Positions 2,955-16,032 of a DNA stretch of 19,035 nucleotides are shown piece after piece; within the stretch, counting starts at the first letter, position 1; the number at the start of each line of letters is the position of its first letter. The translations under genes and the position numbers were made by a program. The DNA comes from a virus (taxonomy: Duplodnaviria; Heunggongvirae; Uroviricota; Caudoviricetes), in the IMG/VR virus record IMGVR_UViG_2645727555_000005, positions 1 to 19,035 of that record; one strand, written 5' to 3'. The notes under the pieces are model-generated. The model made no database searches. It was not told the DNA's origin and was given only the letters and a program-made list of their open reading frames with translations.

Positions 2955-3605
2955 TCACTCCACTACAAACCAGTCACAAGCCAGTAAATCATCAACAGAC
3001 GGCAACCAAACGCTGTCCATATTTTGTGCATCTTTCAATACGAAATGGTCACCATAAGGAACCTGAATGTCGTGTAAATTGACGCTCCCAGCGAGAACTA
3101 ACCAGCAGAATTGCTTTTCGCCTTTCCACTCGCGTCGAGCTACATTTTTTCCTTCTTTCAGCCACATTAGCGCATCAGAAAAGTCGGCTGCTTCAAGGTC
3201 GATTTCCTCTTGCTGGGTAGTGGTACCACCAGCAGAAATAGTTACGCTCCCGGTAATATTAATCATCACGCCGTTGTCATCCGTAATGATGACCGTGGTT
3301 CCATTTTCGGAGGCGTCGTTAACCAGGCCATAGCATTCCTCAAATGGTTTCTCCGGGGCATAGAACAGATAACCGTTTTCATAAACGATCAGATACCCGC
3401 CAGTTTTTGGTCGGTGTTTTTGTAAAAACATTGCGTCAACACAAACTGTTGCCCCTTTTGGTTCAACGAGTTCAATGCAGCCCCAAAGTGGGGCATCAGT
3501 TACTCCGAAAATAACAACATTTTTGATTTTCGATGCACTAACGTTTTTGTGAGCTTTGTATTTGGGAAGGAACTTAAAAAGCTCTTTCGTTGCCATGTAA
3601 TTCAT
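2955..3605 (-). CDS. hypothetical protein with C-terminal DUF2829-like domain
   Basis: 216 aa. C-terminal ~75 aa (FSDALMWLKEGKNVARREW...LLACDWFVVE) matches the DUF2829 pattern (A..W.K.GK.V.R..W ... DW.hhE). AGGAAAGG RBS directly upstream. Confidence 0.7.
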   Translation of the reverse strand: MNYMATKELFKFLPKYKAHKNVSASKIKNVVIFGVTDAPLWGCIELVEPKGATVCVDAMFLQKHRPKTGGYLIVYENGYLFYAPEKPFEECYGLVNDASENGTTVIITDDNGVMINITGSVTISAGGTTTQQEEIDLEAADFSDALMWLKEGKNVARREWKGEKQFCWLVLAGSVNLHDIQVPYGDHFVLKDAQNMDSVWLPSVDDLLACDWFVVE

Positions 3606-3619
3606 AGCCTTTCCTCTGC

Positions 3620-4114
3620 TTAAAACTTTGCGTACTGAAGCGGTGTGCGCTTGATTTCAAAGTGGTCTTCCGATGTGCTACCAAAGCCACCAGTACCACG
3701 TTCCGTTTCGTTGAGTTCCTCAACCTCGACTAGTGAGACTTGTTCAACACGCTCAAAAATGCCTTGCATGACAGCCATTCCAGGCTTGAGACGAACGACT
3801 TCCCCGCCTGGATCAGTAATCAGTTTTGCCATGATTTCACCGCGATAATCAGAGTCGATAATTCCTACGCAGTTAGCCAGGCGAGTATGTTTTTTGCAGC
3901 CCAATCCGGAGCGCGGATAGAGTTTCAGACACCAGCCGGGCGGGATCTCCATAGCCAGTCCGGTGTACACCCACCAGCTTGAGGAAATTGCACCATTGCT
4001 ATCGACGCATGGTTTTATTTCAACAGCCTCAAAATCCATCGCCGCCGATCCGGAGGTGGCATAAGCTGGAAGTTTTGCTGCCGGATGTAGGCGTTTCACT
4101 TTTACGTAAATCAT
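3620..4114 (-). CDS. dut: dUTP diphosphatase (trimeric dUTPase family)
   Basis: 164 aa with all dUTPase motifs in order: YATSGSAAMD, PRSGLG, GIIDSDYRGEI, MQGIF, RGTGGFGSTS. Start overlaps upstream stop (ATGA). About 15-aa C-terminal extension beyond motif V. Confidence 0.85.
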   Translation of the reverse strand: MIYVKVKRLHPAAKLPAYATSGSAAMDFEAVEIKPCVDSNGAISSSWWVYTGLAMEIPPGWCLKLYPRSGLGCKKHTRLANCVGIIDSDYRGEIMAKLITDPGGEVVRLKPGMAVMQGIFERVEQVSLVEVEELNETERGTGGFGSTSEDHFEIKRTPLQYAKF

Positions 4115-6384: not shown

Positions 6385-6424
6385 ATAGTAATTTTATGTT
6401 AGAAAACTAAATCGAGTAGGAATA

Positions 6425-7497: not shown

Positions 7498-8998
7498 CCA
7501 GATCTGGCATTTCGATATCCGCCAGAACCTGATCTCGGAAAGTTGCCATTTCGGCACCAATATCTTCATTAGCAGGCACATAGTCCACCAGCATAGTGAA
7601 GCAGTAGGTATCCCATCGGTCAGGCGATTTGATGTTTAGCTTTTGCCGCATGTGCTCTTTGCGCATCATCGCCATTTTCCCTTCCTCATTCAGTAAAAAG
7701 GGGATTTTTGACGCTTGCTCTGCCGTTTTAGGGTCACTGTCTATCCGCATACGCCCTGACTTTATGGCATCACGCGCCATAATATTTGCGTAGGCACGCT
7801 GATTAACAAATCGCTCCCTGTCTTTGTTCGCAAACATGGGTTTTCCCCACCGAATACGTACCGGGTTCGCACCACGACGCACCAACTGCGCACACGCATC
7901 AGAACCAAAACCATCGGCATCAACCGCGATTGTTATATTCGGGTATTTTTCCGGCGTACATTCGTTATATATGAAGTCAGCAAAGGCCAATGGGTCCATA
8001 GTGCCAGGCATCTCCATTACCTTAAAGTTAACAACGCGCCGCTTATCCCTGTGACCAGATACCTTGCAGATGTTGAGGACCGACTTATCTCGCCCATTAC
8101 CAACGTCAGCCGTTGCCACCCATCCCCAGTTTTTCTCCAACAACACCTTGCGGCGAGCTGCGCGATCGCATTCATCACGACCAAGCAAATAGCCGTTAAT
8201 TTCTCGTGGGAACTGACCAAGCACCTTGACCATGTACTCAATAGAATCGCGCCCGCCATATTCCAGAAGCTTCTGCTTGATGAATTGTGGTGTGACGAAC
8301 GGTGATTCTTCCGAGTTAAGAACAATTGCTGTCCAGATCCCTTTCGGGTTGTCTGGGGTTTTTGCTTGAGAATGGTGCGAATCGTAGAAATAACCACTTG
8401 GCCTTGTTGGCTGGGATAGCATCAACATCCGGTTATCTTCTTCAGTAAGAGCACCGGTCATTACGCCGATCGCCTTATCAGATATACCAGATGCTTCATC
8501 CAGAATTAGAAGCAAATGTGCCGCATGTTCCCCCGCCAGCGCTTCTTCGTTGCCGAGTCGATAACCTTTGCAGAGAACTTCCCAAATCCCCTTACGGGAG
8601 CGCTCATAAAACATGGTGTCAGAGAGGACAAAATAGGTCTGCAACCACCCATGACGCTTAACTGCATTCGCCCAATACTGTTTAACGTATTTGAATACGC
8701 CTGTTTTTACCTGGCCTATCTTGTTAGCAACAATGATGACACGGGCATCGGGGAACAGGATCATAAAAATCAACAGCAACATCGCGGTAAGGGACGACTT
8801 CCCCGTTCCGTGTCCGGACGTGACGGTCGTCCTACTCCCCGTTTCCTGCACTGACTGAATGATCTGCTGCTGCTGGTGGGAGGGGAACATCCCAAAAATA
8901 TCGACAACAGCCTGGGTAAAGTTGTAGCGGTATTTGATTACCATATCGCGCCAGCGTGGATCGCTGGTGACGCATTTAATCTTGCGCCCGCCAGCCAT
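7490..8998 (-). CDS. pacB: terminase large subunit (PacB-like)
   Basis: 502 aa with Walker A GHGTGKS near the N-terminus and an acidic nuclease-type C-terminal half. Start overlaps pacA stop by 1 nt. P1-type order lpa-pacA-pacB. Confidence 0.9.
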   Translation of the reverse strand: MAGGRKIKCVTSDPRWRDMVIKYRYNFTQAVVDIFGMFPSHQQQQIIQSVQETGSRTTVTSGHGTGKSSLTAMLLLIFMILFPDARVIIVANKIGQVKTGVFKYVKQYWANAVKRHGWLQTYFVLSDTMFYERSRKGIWEVLCKGYRLGNEEALAGEHAAHLLLILDEASGISDKAIGVMTGALTEEDNRMLMLSQPTRPSGYFYDSHHSQAKTPDNPKGIWTAIVLNSEESPFVTPQFIKQKLLEYGGRDSIEYMVKVLGQFPREINGYLLGRDECDRAARRKVLLEKNWGWVATADVGNGRDKSVLNICKVSGHRDKRRVVNFKVMEMPGTMDPLAFADFIYNECTPEKYPNITIAVDADGFGSDACAQLVRRGANPVRIRWGKPMFANKDRERFVNQRAYANIMARDAIKSGRMRIDSDPKTAEQASKIPFLLNEEGKMAMMRKEHMRQKLNIKSPDRWDTYCFTMLVDYVPANEDIGAEMATFRDQVLADIEMPDLDI

Positions 8999-10362
8999 TA
9001 ATCATCCTCCGGCGGTTCTATCGCGATATCATCATCTCCGGCGTCATACCCTGCATCAGATGCATCATAATCACCGTAAATTTCAGCCGTTGCCGAAGGG
9101 TCAATATCCAGCTCTTCGTCGTTGGCCTCGAATTCTCCAGCTTTACGCTCGCCATTGCGGTCGTAATCTCCGCACCCCAATTCTTCAACAATGGTTGCCA
9201 CATCCGCCCGGCGCTCTGCCAGCCATTGCGGATGGTTAGCCTGAAGCGTTGCAAACTCCCTTGCCTCTTTGTCCAGCTGTTCATCATCAACATCATTGAC
9301 GTCAGAAACAGGTGGTTCGAGAAGAGTGATAGCTTTCGCCGCGCGCGCCGCGAGGATAGCCGGGACGCTGACCCCCTGGCGCTCGATGTATTCAGCAACA
9401 CCGATATCATCCAGTTCCTCGCGCTCACGCATACGTATAGCGGCGGCGATAACTCTGGCAGCGCGTGCGTCAGCGCCAATGCGATATTCAATCTCTTTGC
9501 CACGCTGTTCGGCCTGTAGGCGTGCTAATTCGAGTTTTTCTCTGGCCTCAGCCTCTTTGAATGCTTGCTGGCGAGCGCTCTGACGAAGCTTTTCATCCCC
9601 CTGTCGCAGCTTTTGTTCGGACTGATATATAGCTGCCAACCTACTGATAAAATCATTCATGTAGTAGGCCGCGTCACTGATTAGACCGAGAAGGCGCTGC
9701 CCAGGGTGCATTCCTTCTGGCTCTTTATCGCCCAAGGCGTCTATTTCCGCCTGTAGACGTTCGGCCTCCTGATCAACAATGCTTTGATACTGAAGTGCGC
9801 GCTCTTGCGCCATTTGAATTGCTAACCGCAGGTGTTCTTCTGCGCCGTTCTTCATCATATCGCGAGCCACATTCGTAGTGGGCAATGTGGCACGCTGCAC
9901 AGCACCGCCAGGGATCATTGCTGAAGATCCCTCAATTTTTGGGGCGCTTTTATCTTCTTCGGGGATCATTTTCGCCATTTTTTCGCGCAATGGTCTCCTG
10001 ACAGATTCTTTTATCTCATTGTTATTATTTGCATTATTTTCATGATCCGAAGTTTTCTTTCTCGGCATACTTCGGAAAGAACCTGCGCCCTGCGAATTGT
10101 CAATTTCTGTAAATTTTGTTTTTTCTGCACCCTCTTCCAGCTTTTTTGTTGCTCTTCCCGCCCGTTTTTTTTCAGGTGATTTGGTGCTTTTTTTTGTTGT
10201 CTTTACCTGCGACCGCACCTCATTTTTTTTCATATTGAGATGCTTTCTGGCTGTATTGAAGCTAAGGCCATGCTCCTCACAGTATTCCTTTACAGTGATC
10301 CCTTTTTCTTCACGCAACGCTATAAAGCGGGCGCGGTGCTCCTCCCAATTAACCAGACTCAT
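8998..10362 (-). CDS. pacA: terminase small / pac-recognition subunit (PacA-like)
   Basis: 454 aa. N-terminal HTH-like segment (WEEHRARFIALREEKGITVKEYCEEHGLSFNTARKHL) resembling the P1 PacA N-terminus; Lys-rich linker; central coiled coil; acidic C-terminus. ATGA overlap with lpa. Confidence 0.8.
   Translation of the reverse strand: MSLVNWEEHRARFIALREEKGITVKEYCEEHGLSFNTARKHLNMKKNEVRSQVKTTKKSTKSPEKKRAGRATKKLEEGAEKTKFTEIDNSQGAGSFRSMPRKKTSDHENNANNNNEIKESVRRPLREKMAKMIPEEDKSAPKIEGSSAMIPGGAVQRATLPTTNVARDMMKNGAEEHLRLAIQMAQERALQYQSIVDQEAERLQAEIDALGDKEPEGMHPGQRLLGLISDAAYYMNDFISRLAAIYQSEQKLRQGDEKLRQSARQQAFKEAEAREKLELARLQAEQRGKEIEYRIGADARAARVIAAAIRMREREELDDIGVAEYIERQGVSVPAILAARAAKAITLLEPPVSDVNDVDDEQLDKEAREFATLQANHPQWLAERRADVATIVEELGCGDYDRNGERKAGEFEANDEELDIDPSATAEIYGDYDASDAGYDAGDDDIAIEPPEDD
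9900..10050. other. candidate pac cleavage region (GATC hexamer cluster inside pacA)
   Basis: TGATCC-type hexamers on opposite strands at 9913-9916, 9964-9967 and 10044-10047, plus GATC at 9926, TGATCA at 9770 and TGATCC at 10297, flanking an A/T-rich core (10000-10040). P1 pac is a cluster of Dam-methylatable TGATCA/G hexamers inside pacA. Confidence 0.3.
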
Positions 10363-10751: not shown

Positions 10752-10859
10752 TAATCCCCCGGGCAGGAAATGACCGAGGGGATGATAATGAGAATGTTAA
10801 AACTGTATAGACTGGTAAAAAGATGATTATATTAGAAAATTAATATTAAATACCTAACA

Positions 10860-11252
10860 CTACCAGCGAGACAAACGAACAACATGTTTCACTTTTGCGA
10901 TCCACTTTCCGCGATAACTATTGATTACGGCCTGTGCCAGCTTCAAATTGGCTTCAAAATCAGCCTTACTACCATCAGACTCCACCAGCATTCCTCCATC
11001 TATTTCTGGTAAACATAGATAATCCTGCTCAACCTGCAGCGGCATTGATGGCTCTCTGAATGGCGTTACTTGCTCTGCTTTCCAGCGAAATCTAACCCTC
11101 ATCCCCCTGGTGGTCATTACTAGATAGCCTGTTATAGTGCTTTTATGGCCCACATCAGTACGCGTGGCATTGCATGACACGATCTTACAGTTAGCGATAG
11201 ACCACTCCATATTGGTGGCCTGTTGAGTGCTTAATTTGGTAGTCCCGTACAT
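10860..11252 (-). CDS. hypothetical protein (130 aa)
   Basis: ORF whose start overlaps the stop of the upstream DUF2829-like gene by 1 nt; no motif recognised. Confidence 0.55.
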   Translation of the reverse strand: MYGTTKLSTQQATNMEWSIANCKIVSCNATRTDVGHKSTITGYLVMTTRGMRVRFRWKAEQVTPFREPSMPLQVEQDYLCLPEIDGGMLVESDGSKADFEANLKLAQAVINSYRGKWIAKVKHVVRLSRW

Positions 11253-11827
11253 CAGAAAGCCTCCCAGTCAGTCGCGATAATATCCACACCAGTTGCAAAC
11301 CAGTCTGTCTGCGCCTGTAAATCCCCATTCATCATTACCAAGCGAGGCATCACCATCACATCGCACCCTTCCACAATATCGAATGCCTCTTCCGGTAAGA
11401 ATTCGAAGAGCTTTTCTTTGCTGCCAATGCTGCCACGGAACATCGATATATAGCTCCCTTTAGGCCATGATGTCCGCCGGGCATCAAGCCCTTTCATCAT
11501 CCAGTAAAAAGCCGAGGAAAAAGGGATATTCTTTTTGCCAATGATTACATTATTCGCTTCTGTGTACTTCAGGAACTTAACTAACCTTACCATTGACTCG
11601 GATAACGCAACGTATGGCTCATGATTGATTGCTGACACGCTTACACCGTGCAATCCAACGCTTACCACTGTCATATCGCCGCTCTGTGCGGTTTCGATAT
11701 TGACGCCTTTGCGAACTAATGAGGCGTAAAGTTCCTCTCGCTTTTGGGTCCAGCGTTCCCGCTTCCCTATGAAGTCACTCAAAATGAGATCTTCTTCTGC
11801 ATGTGCGTTATCGTTCGCCATTAACAT
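11252..11827 (-). CDS. hypothetical protein with C-terminal DUF2829-like domain
   Basis: 191 aa. C-terminal FSSAFYWMMKGLDARRTSWPKGSYI...DIIATDWEAF fits the same DUF2829 pattern as the 216-aa protein at 2955-3605. Near-palindrome CATCTCTCGG...CCGATAGAGATG at 11861-11890 just upstream. Confidence 0.65.
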   Translation of the reverse strand: MLMANDNAHAEEDLILSDFIGKRERWTQKREELYASLVRKGVNIETAQSGDMTVVSVGLHGVSVSAINHEPYVALSESMVRLVKFLKYTEANNVIIGKKNIPFSSAFYWMMKGLDARRTSWPKGSYISMFRGSIGSKEKLFEFLPEEAFDIVEGCDVMVMPRLVMMNGDLQAQTDWFATGVDIIATDWEAF

Positions 11828-12282: not shown

Positions 12283-12358
12283 TGGTGGCCCCTACCGGAC
12301 TTGAACCGGTGACCGTGCGATTATGAGTCGCCAGCTCTAACCACTGAGCTAAAGGGCC
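12283..12358 (-). tRNA. tRNA with CAT anticodon, most like tRNA-Ile2 (lysidine, AUA decoder); elongator Met not excluded
   Basis: 76 nt incl. encoded CCA: GGCCCTT TA GCTC AGTGGTTA GAGC T GGCGA CTCATAA TCGCA CGGTC ACCGG TTCAAGT CCGGT AGGGGCC A CCA. G1-C72 pair, so not initiator. Closely resembles E. coli ileX as recalled. Confidence 0.85.
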
Positions 12359-12495
12359 AGATTACTGTTAATTCCGCTTACGCTTTTTGCCAGAACCGCG
12401 TAAGGCTTTTGCCGCTTGCTCGACCCCATATGCAACCACCAGCAAAAATAAAAATGTCCAACCAGGGTTCTTATCGGCAAACGCCCAAAAATTCA

Positions 12496-12819
12496 TCACT
12501 TACAGCCACCTTGCATTTCCTTGGATAATTCATTGATTTTAGTGCTCAATAAGTAATCAAAATAAAGATAAAACACAAAAGTAACGATAGTGCTTAAAGT
12601 GTCTGAAATTGCGTATTTCAGCTCAGGAAGCATGACAAAGCAGACAAATAGCGGAAGAAATAACTGCACTATGCACAGGCTCTTCTTCCACAACCATCTA
12701 TATCTGAAGTCTGACAACAAAAACTCCATTGCTTGAAACTTTATTAGATTGCGGTGCCTGGTGCCTCCAGGTGACGTTAACCAGTTAACAATTAACGTCG
12801 GGATGTTTGACTTAACCAC
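12496..12819 (-). CDS. possible small hydrophobic membrane protein (start uncertain, GTG 12819 or ATG 12729)
   Basis: Track ORF; the portion from the internal Met (MEFLLSDF...) is strongly hydrophobic. No convincing RBS. Located between tRNA genes. Confidence 0.3.
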   Translation of the reverse strand: MVKSNIPTLIVNWLTSPGGTRHRNLIKFQAMEFLLSDFRYRWLWKKSLCIVQLFLPLFVCFVMLPELKYAISDTLSTIVTFVFYLYFDYLLSTKINELSKEMQGGCK

Positions 12820-12979
12820 TAAGGAGGATTGTTTTAACTGTTCCGCGTGCGCTTAGCCGCATTCACCGCAATGGTAAGAGCACTTGGCTGGCTGGGCGGC
12901 GATGACGCCTGTACGCATTTGGTGATCCGGTTCTGCTTCCGGCATTCGCTTAATTAGCCAAATACTCTTAACGTTGCGA

Positions 12980-13066
12980 TGGCGGAGAGTAATGGAATCG
13001 AACCATCATCGCTTGCGCAATGGGACGGTTTTCAAGACCGCTTGAGCACCATGCTCCCTACTCTCC
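12980..13066 (-). tRNA. type-II (long variable arm) tRNA-like gene, anticodon TGA (Ser)
   Basis: 87 nt incl. CCA. 7-bp acceptor GGAGAGT/ACTCTCC, anticodon arm GCGGT CTTGAAA ACCGT, T-arm GATGG TTCGATT CCATT, discriminator G. D-arm is atypical (GAGC/GCTC stem, 5-nt loop, 3-nt linker), so needs a tRNA scan. Confidence 0.55.
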
Positions 13067-13261
13067 AGTGATTGTGGTGGTCGGTGCTGATCTCCGACAC
13101 AGGGTTGTAGCAAGCCCCGCAAAGCGCGCACTACTGTAGTTGCGGCACATCAGCCTGTGCATTCACCACAATGTTGAGAACACTGGTTGTCACGCGGCAA
13201 CGCAACATTTATTCATAGATTGGGATATGACCCCGTTACGCCAATGTTCTCAATATTATGT

Positions 13262-13337
13262 TGGTGCCGGTTAACGGACTTGAACCGCTGGCCATTCGCT
13301 TACAAAGCGACTGCTCTACCAACTGAGCTAAACCGGC
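13262..13337 (-). tRNA. tRNA-Thr (anticodon TGT)
   Basis: 76 nt incl. CCA: GCCGGTT TA GCTC AGTTGGTA GAGC A GTCGC TTTGTAA GCGAA TGGCC AGCGG TTCAAGT CCGTT AACCGGC A CCA. Canonical cloverleaf. Confidence 0.9.
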
Positions 13338-13341
13338 AATT

Positions 13342-13428
13342 TGGTGGGGAGTGATGGAGTCGAACCACCCGAGTCGCAATGACAGTAGATTTACAGTCTA
13401 CCCCGCTACCCCTACGGACTAACTCCCC
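13342..13428 (-). tRNA. type-II tRNA-Tyr (anticodon GTA)
   Basis: 87 nt incl. CCA. Acceptor GGGGAGT/ACTCCCC, anticodon arm GTAGA CTGTAAA TCTAC (same loop as E. coli tRNA-Tyr), long variable arm, T-arm GGTGG TTCGACT CCATC. D-arm spacing off by 1 nt from canonical. Confidence 0.75.
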
Positions 13429-13433
13429 TAAAT

Positions 13434-13510
13434 TGGCGATGGTGGGCGGATTCGAACCACCGACCGACAGCTTAGAAGGCTGCTGCTCTATCCTACTGAG
13501 CTACACCATC
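13434..13510 (-). tRNA. tRNA-Arg (anticodon TCT, AGA decoder)
   Basis: 77 nt incl. CCA: GATGGTG TA GCTC AGTAGGATA GAGC A GCAGC CTTCTAA GCTGT CGGTC GGTGG TTCGAAT CCGCC CACCATC G CCA. Canonical cloverleaf. Confidence 0.85.
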
Positions 13511-15953: not shown

Positions 15954-16032
15954 TGCTGTTCCCGTCACTTTGTTAAATTAGTTTTCTAATATATTTTATT
16001 AGTTTGATGACGGTATCGGAAGATGCAATAAA

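Follow-up and report, generated by a model that had tools for sequence, protein, structure and literature searches.

Two genes of a P1-family phage-plasmid encode proteins of 191 and 216 residues with similar C-terminal modules and dissimilar N-terminal halves, which raises the question of what the shared module is and what it does at two separate sites of the same element. The window, meaning the whole stretch of 19,035 nucleotides that was analysed, is D6-like, with about 97-99% identity to Escherichia phage D6 over most of its length. An earlier note on this DNA had placed the genes at 11252-11827 (191 residues) and 2955-3605 (216 residues) without giving their strand; both sets of coordinates are correct, and both ORFs lie on the minus strand.

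The resemblance of the two C-termini, judged by profile comparison, is real and well above chance. Both modules had been described as DUF2829-like, and both proteins do match the corresponding Pfam family PF11195, now named 'Tad2-like, Thoeris anti-defense 2-like domain'. Against a curated gathering score of 25 bits, the 191-residue protein scores 39.1 bits (E 1.1e-9) over residues 103-190, and the 216-residue protein 64.6 bits (E 1.2e-17) over residues 141-215. The motif that had drawn attention, FS.A..W...G...ARR.W followed by DW, consists of helix α1 and the C-terminal hallmark of Tad2; as had been noticed, the modules stop close to the C-terminus, the domains ending 1-4 residues before the stop codon (DW-EAF-stop and DW-FVVE-stop). 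The earlier note would have abandoned the idea had the two segments failed to align above chance, and here the outcome depends on the method. Pairwise BLASTP returns an E of 0.19-0.30, so that a pairwise alignment alone fails this test, whereas a profile built solely from proteins with the two-domain architecture of the 191-residue protein (exhaustive HMMER scan of 1.84 billion representatives) matches the C-terminus of the 216-residue protein with an hhalign probability of 95% and an E of 5e-8 over 80 columns. The same profile matches solved Tad2 structures with E of 3.6e-7 to 8e-6. A chance match, for which the BLASTP value speaks, is refuted by the PF11195 matches of both proteins, the fold search and the hhalign comparison, and its likelihood is close to nil. 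Membership of both proteins in the Tad2 family is established, and the module belongs to an anti-defence family, as had been suspected.

The 191-residue protein is 99.5% identical to D6 orf6, and its gene (11252-11827, minus strand) begins with an ATG that has the ribosome-binding site AAGGAG 6 nt in front of it. Its Tad2-like domain (residues 103-190; 11258-11521, minus strand) carries a long β2-β3 insertion of ~37 residues and is preceded by an α-α-β3-α, dsRBD-like domain (residues ~9-91; 11555-11803, minus strand). The AlphaFold2 model has a mean pLDDT of 88 when computed from a 28-sequence alignment, which resolved the C-terminal domain that had remained at a pLDDT of ~30 with five close sequences. 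In this model, the C-terminal domain has the Tad2 fold, in which an antiparallel sheet bearing the β2-β3 insertion comes after an N-terminal helix, and the N-terminal domain has a dsRBD-like α-β3-α fold, to which no sequence family was matched. Double-stranded RNA-binding domains have a conserved basic KKxAK-type motif where the last helix begins; the helix found here, PYVALSESMVRLVKFLKY, is without a basic motif, and the domain has no Pfam dsrm match. Matches of the full protein to malate dehydrogenase (phmmer, PDB sequences) were spurious, and a PDB match of the N-terminal-domain profile to designed ankyrin repeats reflects a short 'LL..G.DV' motif summed over repeats, not homology. The family is rare: about a dozen of the 1.84 billion representatives have its two-domain architecture. 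The gene itself occurs in 125 PLSDB plasmids; among 5,426 complete E. coli genomes, 98 have it, in every case on a plasmid.

The 216-residue protein (2955-3605, minus strand) has copies of 100% identity on E. coli plasmids, where it is annotated 'DUF2829 domain-containing protein'. Its Tad2-like domain (residues 141-215; 2961-3185, minus strand) is a short-core allele, in which W-K-G replaces W-N-G. Searched with phmmer, the protein matches the structures of ModTad2 (9eib, E 1e-9) and SPO1 Tad2 (8sme, E 1e-5), and it also matches SptTad2 and HgmTad2/AcrIIA7 by sequence. The N-terminal module (residues ~14-98; 3312-3566, minus strand) belongs to no Pfam family. Compared with the decoration protein Dec of phage L (PDB 6E3C), it gives an E of 0.03 as a single sequence and 9e-5 as a family profile (positions 20-108 against Dec 22-107); the match covers nearly the whole OB domain, which assigns a Dec-like OB fold to the module on sequence-profile grounds. 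As in Dec, the OB domain is followed by a Gly/Thr-rich β segment, here a linker (residues 99-134; 3204-3311, minus strand) ending in the near-invariant junction IDLEAADFSDALMWLKEGK (residues 135-153; 3146-3202). Unlike Dec, which decorates the capsid, the module is fused to a sponge domain and is encoded outside the morphogenesis genes. It also occurs as a stand-alone protein in phages of Klebsiella, Ralstonia, Pseudomonas and Burkholderia. In addition, it is homologous to the N-terminal module of Clostridium proteins fused to Acb4 (hhalign probability 90%, E 1.6e-6); these OB-PF13876 fusions are entries A0A0E2HC24 and A0A0F2QC79 of the Acb4 Table S3. The N-terminal halves of the two window proteins had been called unrelated, and they are: no alignment between them was found, and their folds differ, α-β3-α in one and Dec-like OB in the other.

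The family of the 216-residue protein is much commoner than that of the 191-residue protein and strongly mosaic. Its relatives are fused to Sequestin (PF21825), to a dUTPase (PF00692) or to a tail-fibre repeat (PF03406), and the junction stays near-invariant across proteins that differ in their N-termini and Tad2 cores; it has the look of a joint at which modules are shuffled by recombination. The D6 counterpart, orf114 (L002; 146 residues), has no OB module, window positions 3307-3544 being missing from D6. It carries an alternative Tad2 allele, with W-N-G and a 48-residue core, on an otherwise ~97% identical backbone; other P1-like elements, D6 included, have at this locus the canonical W-N-G with a core of 48 or 56 residues. 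This pattern points to allele replacement at the locus. The analogy to polymorphic effectors drawn in the earlier note is apt in a loose sense, as regards the mosaic locus with its alternative Tad2 alleles and N-terminal modules, but the fusion of one sponge to another, as in Acb4-Tad2 and Sequestin-Tad2, is the better documented precedent. In a P1-like contig (L004), a dUTPase-Tad2 fusion of 304 residues (8334-9023) takes the place of two genes, dut (3620-4114) and Tad2, that are separate in the window, and a diverged P1-like element (L005) holds a third Tad2-like gene (2413-2931; 172 residues).

Both genes had been said to sit where gene order departs from P1, and a comparison of the two loci with P1 bears this out. 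One minus-strand string reads dre-orf117-orf116-dut-216-residue gene-isaA (~6030 down to 2172), dre being a Cre homologue; in P1, c8-ref-mat stands after cre, and in the window orf117-orf116-dut-Tad2-isaA stands after dre. The other minus-strand string consists of a tRNA cluster, the 191-residue gene, orf5, lpa, pacA and pacB (~13510 down to 7490); in P1, pdcB precedes Olpa-lpa, a position taken in the window by the Tad2-like gene and orf5. Relatives of the 191-residue protein are encoded immediately upstream of lpa in all three longer contigs of P1-like elements that were examined (L003, L004 and L005). The window contains five tRNA genes on the minus strand (12283-13510: Met-CAT, Ser-TGA, Thr-TGT, Tyr-GTA and Arg-TCT), and the D6 set (L001 6084-7850) comprises Met, Ser, Thr and Asn. 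The RefSeq feature table of D6 puts its tRNAs on the plus strand and omits tRNA-Met; ARAGORN finds all of them on the minus strand.

Downstream of the 191-residue gene lies orf5 (D6 orf5; 10860-11252, minus strand), which encodes 130 residues and whose ATG overlaps the TGA of the Tad2-like gene by one base (TGATG). An overlapping gene of ~130-139 residues also follows the Tad2-like gene in the P1-like contigs L004 and L005 and in the short contig L006. Identity to orf5 is 35% for the L004 partner and ~22-25% for that of L005; the L006 partner (139 residues) aligns poorly. Judged by this recurring arrangement, orf5 is a conserved downstream partner of the Tad2-like gene. It has no match in Pfam, NCBIfam, PADLOC or the PDB, nor in PHROGs by function.

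Biochemical work on Tad2 gives the module a chemical context. Tad2 was described as a phage protein of ~90 residues whose homotetramer sequesters the Thoeris signal 1''-3' gcADPR (10.1101/2023.05.01.538930). In SPO1 Tad2 the ligand residues are W25, N26, W73 and D79, and T78, S76, I63 and T65 make additional contacts (10.1101/2023.05.01.538930); in HgmTad2 the ligand residues are W21, N22, G23, W87, S90, T92 and D93 (PMC10680739). The Asn after the first Trp contacts the diphosphate in both proteins (10.1101/2023.05.01.538930; PMC10680739), and HgmTad2 no longer binds when W21A and N22A are combined (PMC10680739). A long β2-β5 insertion gives HgmTad2 a second pocket, which accommodates cyclic dinucleotides (PMC10680739). 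ModTad2 sequesters His-ADPR from type II Thoeris (10.1101/2024.01.03.573942) and also cUMP/cCMP, and other Tad2 homologues bind N7-cADPR (10.1101/2025.08.24.671296). Altogether, the ligands of characterised Tad2 proteins comprise 3'cADPR/gcADPR, His-ADPR, N7-cADPR, cyclic dinucleotides and cUMP/cCMP, held in pockets between the protomers of the homotetramer. The suggestion that the two window proteins have a common partner or target needs correction as to the nature of that partner: what characterised Tad2 proteins bind are small nucleotide immune signals, not a protein of the kind that pull-downs or two-hybrid assays detect.

The window proteins retain the aromatic frame of this pocket and have an altered loop next to it. 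W121, W176 and D182 of the 191-residue protein correspond to W25, W73 and D79 of SPO1 Tad2, as do, in the 216-residue protein, W160 together with the Trp and the second Asp of the stretch WLPSVDD; W121 and W176 are invariant across the 191-residue family, whose members have diverged to ~20% identity. The phosphate-binding Asn, on the other hand, is replaced in both, by Pro in the 191-residue protein and by Lys in the 216-residue protein, which leaves the ligand uncertain. The 191-residue family reads W-P-K-G, one residue shorter than W-N-G-K-G, and the position after the first Trp varies among its members (P/R/D/N/G/H); in the 216-residue protein, W-K-G goes together with a short core of 39 residues. 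The position of T78/T92, which hydrogen-bonds the adenine, is occupied by Val in the 191-residue protein and by Asp in the 216-residue protein. The cyclic-dinucleotide contacts of HgmTad2 are not obviously conserved when a profile alignment is read by eye.

Sequence, profile and fold all show the domain to be that of the single-domain Tad2 proteins (SPO1 gp34.65, ModTad2, HgmTad2/AcrIIA7 and SptTad2). Common to all are the helix F..A...L..G..V.R..W, the C-terminal W..S..D.LA.DW, and the two pocket Trp residues with the Asp; all are encoded by phages, in variable accessory regions. The differences lie in architecture and in the loop. Known Tad2 proteins are ~90-105 residues long and have a single domain, whereas the window proteins carry ~100-135 extra N-terminal residues; the known loop is W-N-G, whereas the 191-residue protein has W-P-(deletion)-K-G and the 216-residue protein W-K-G.

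The extra N-terminal residues have precedents among documented, functional sponge fusions. Fusions between Tad2 and Acb4 are frequent, one from Pasteurella phage Pm86 (Acb4-Tad2) blocks both Thoeris and CBASS, and Sequestin (PF21825) was discovered through its fusion to both Tad2 and Acb4 (10.1101/2025.07.12.664507). A protein of 185 residues annotated as hypothetical in Pasteurella phage Pmp13 (L009 907-1464) combines Acb4 (PF13876, E 4e-29) with Tad2 (E 2e-25) and is of the class of the published Pm86 double sponge. The 191-residue protein has the same size and domain order as these two, but its N-terminal domain is without a PF13876 match. Some relatives of the 216-residue protein have the identical junction IDLEAADFSDALMWLKEGK and Tad2 domain together with a C-terminal PF21825, which indicates that Tad2 is routinely combined with other sponge modules in this lineage. 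The 216-residue protein itself is without PF21825; its extra module is N-terminal and Dec/OB-like. The screen of Hadary et al., the largest so far, deliberately left out Tad2 proteins with 6E3C-like or PF21825 domains, so the OB-Tad2 architecture was already known to exist. The exact sequences of the two window proteins were not found in the supplements of the sponge papers.

Whether the N-terminal domain of the 191-residue protein is an Acb4 was judged by the S-A-C..P.NFD..IG hallmark and by eleven residues (K36, F48, E49, V56, Y57, F62, N63, I66, T70, K81 and L89), and this identity was not accepted. The domain has no PF13876 match in Pfam at E up to 10, a family-against-family hhalign comparison gives a probability of 0.8% (E 0.07), and there is no alignment to the Acb4 half of the Pmp13 fusion. 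An 11-residue segment (V56-N63, with the NFD..G hallmark) is absent, and in the best alignment 1 of the 11 ligand residues (K81) is kept. The dsRBD-like α-β3-α fold does agree with Acb4, and the parallel in architecture stands. There is a weak similarity to SPO1-type Acb4, with a BLASTP E of 0.001 over 16 residues; in the same comparison hhalign gives a probability of 26% and an E of 7e-4, a score reached by 0 of 400 shuffles under a null that is lenient toward helix and strand periodicity. That both N-terminal modules are themselves signal-binding domains, which would make each protein a dual sponge, is a tentative possibility to which we give rather low odds. It is suggested by the 191-residue protein, which matches the proven Acb4-Tad2 double sponges in size, domain order and class of fold, and by the OB module, which stands alone and is fused to both Tad2 and Acb4, as Sequestin was. 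In such a case the N-terminal domain of the 191-residue protein may have diverged beyond sequence recognition.

Taken together with the chemistry of the family, both proteins are probably Tad2-family sponges that sequester TIR-derived or cyclic-nucleotide immune signals; the family assignment is firm, and sponge function is likely by analogy. By the precedent of the solved Tad2 proteins, the C-terminal domain of ~85 residues would assemble into a homotetramer, and the pockets between its protomers would bind the nucleotide alarm signals that TIR (Thoeris) or cyclase (CBASS/Pycsar) systems of the host produce. With the signal sequestered, the defence effector would never be switched on, and we infer an anti-defence phenotype on this basis. 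Two divergent paralogues, each bearing a different N-terminal add-on domain, are kept at two variable loci, where they would presumably cover different signals. The genomic setting fits such a role, because the 191-residue family keeps its position upstream of lpa in diverged P1-like elements, because alleles at the locus of the 216-residue gene have been swapped on a ~97% identical backbone, and because related elements hold up to three Tad2-like genes.

Other readings of the same proteins fare less well. The Tad2-like domains could have lost signal binding and serve as a tetramerisation scaffold for the N-terminal domains, the 216-residue protein acting, for example, as a Dec-like capsid decoration. 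The loss of the phosphate-binding Asn from both proteins, the shortened loop of the 191-residue family and the match of the OB module to Dec at E 9e-5 all lend themselves to this explanation; the pocket Trp residues, however, are invariant across very divergent relatives, and the neighbours of the 216-residue gene (dre, dut and isaA) are early or accessory genes, not a morphogenesis block. D6 has kept the Tad2 domain with the OB module deleted, which suggests that the Tad2 part is the selected function, and the OB module recurs in fusion with a different sponge, Acb4. We therefore regard a scaffold as unlikely.

Database names raise two further alternatives. Older records of the 191-residue gene and its homologues read 'hypothetical protein' or 'MW1434 family type I TA system toxin', the latter name being attached to some RefSeq homologues, but current RefSeq labels the same gene on E. 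coli plasmids 'Thoeris anti-defense Tad2 family protein'. The window proteins, of 191 and 216 residues, look soluble, unlike type I toxins, which are small hydrophobic peptides. The toxin name is rejected because neither protein has an NCBIfam match (E up to 0.1) and because both have the Tad2 fold; as an explanation it merits next to no credence. An anti-CRISPR role of the AcrIIA7 type is suggested by AcrIIA7 itself, a DUF2829 protein that is among both the structural and the sequence matches. Li et al., however, could not reproduce its effect, observing no detectable inhibition of Cas9 by HgmTad2/AcrIIA7, which they characterised as a sponge for gcADPR and cyclic dinucleotides (PMC10680739), and this role too is very improbable.

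Upstream of the 191-residue gene and co-directional with it lies a tRNA-Met(CAT)/trnI-like gene (12283-12358, minus strand), and no promoter-like site was found between the two. In P1 the equivalent tRNA is followed by ban, inside the C1-controlled ban operon; by synteny with this operon, an early transcript under repressor control may include the Tad2-like/orf5 pair. The window contains no copy of the P1 C1 operator consensus; instead, the motif TTTTCTAATATAAT, or one closely similar to it, is found before lpa (10826-10839), before c1 (6393-6406) and before a pmgS-like gene (15982-15995), and the first copy stands 75-88 nt before the lpa start, the spacing of the P1 Olpa operator. The motif is a candidate D6-type repressor operator, and its position suggests that lpa probably has its own repressor-controlled promoter downstream of orf5. 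Early expression, if true, would suit a sponge that must build up ahead of the alarm signal.

Identifying the genes is not in itself new, since they already carry the labels Tad2 family or DUF2829 in RefSeq; the residual novelty lies in the N-terminal modules fused ahead of Tad2. The practical value is modest: the two Tad2 variants, with their altered pocket loops, could widen the range of known ligands, and the two N-terminal modules deserve consideration as new sponge or accessory domains. E. coli, Salmonella and Shigella commonly carry P1/D6-like phage-plasmids, which also spread resistance genes. The presence of two divergent Tad2 sponges in one such element, and of three in relatives, suggests that nucleotide-signalling defences are a major barrier to these elements.
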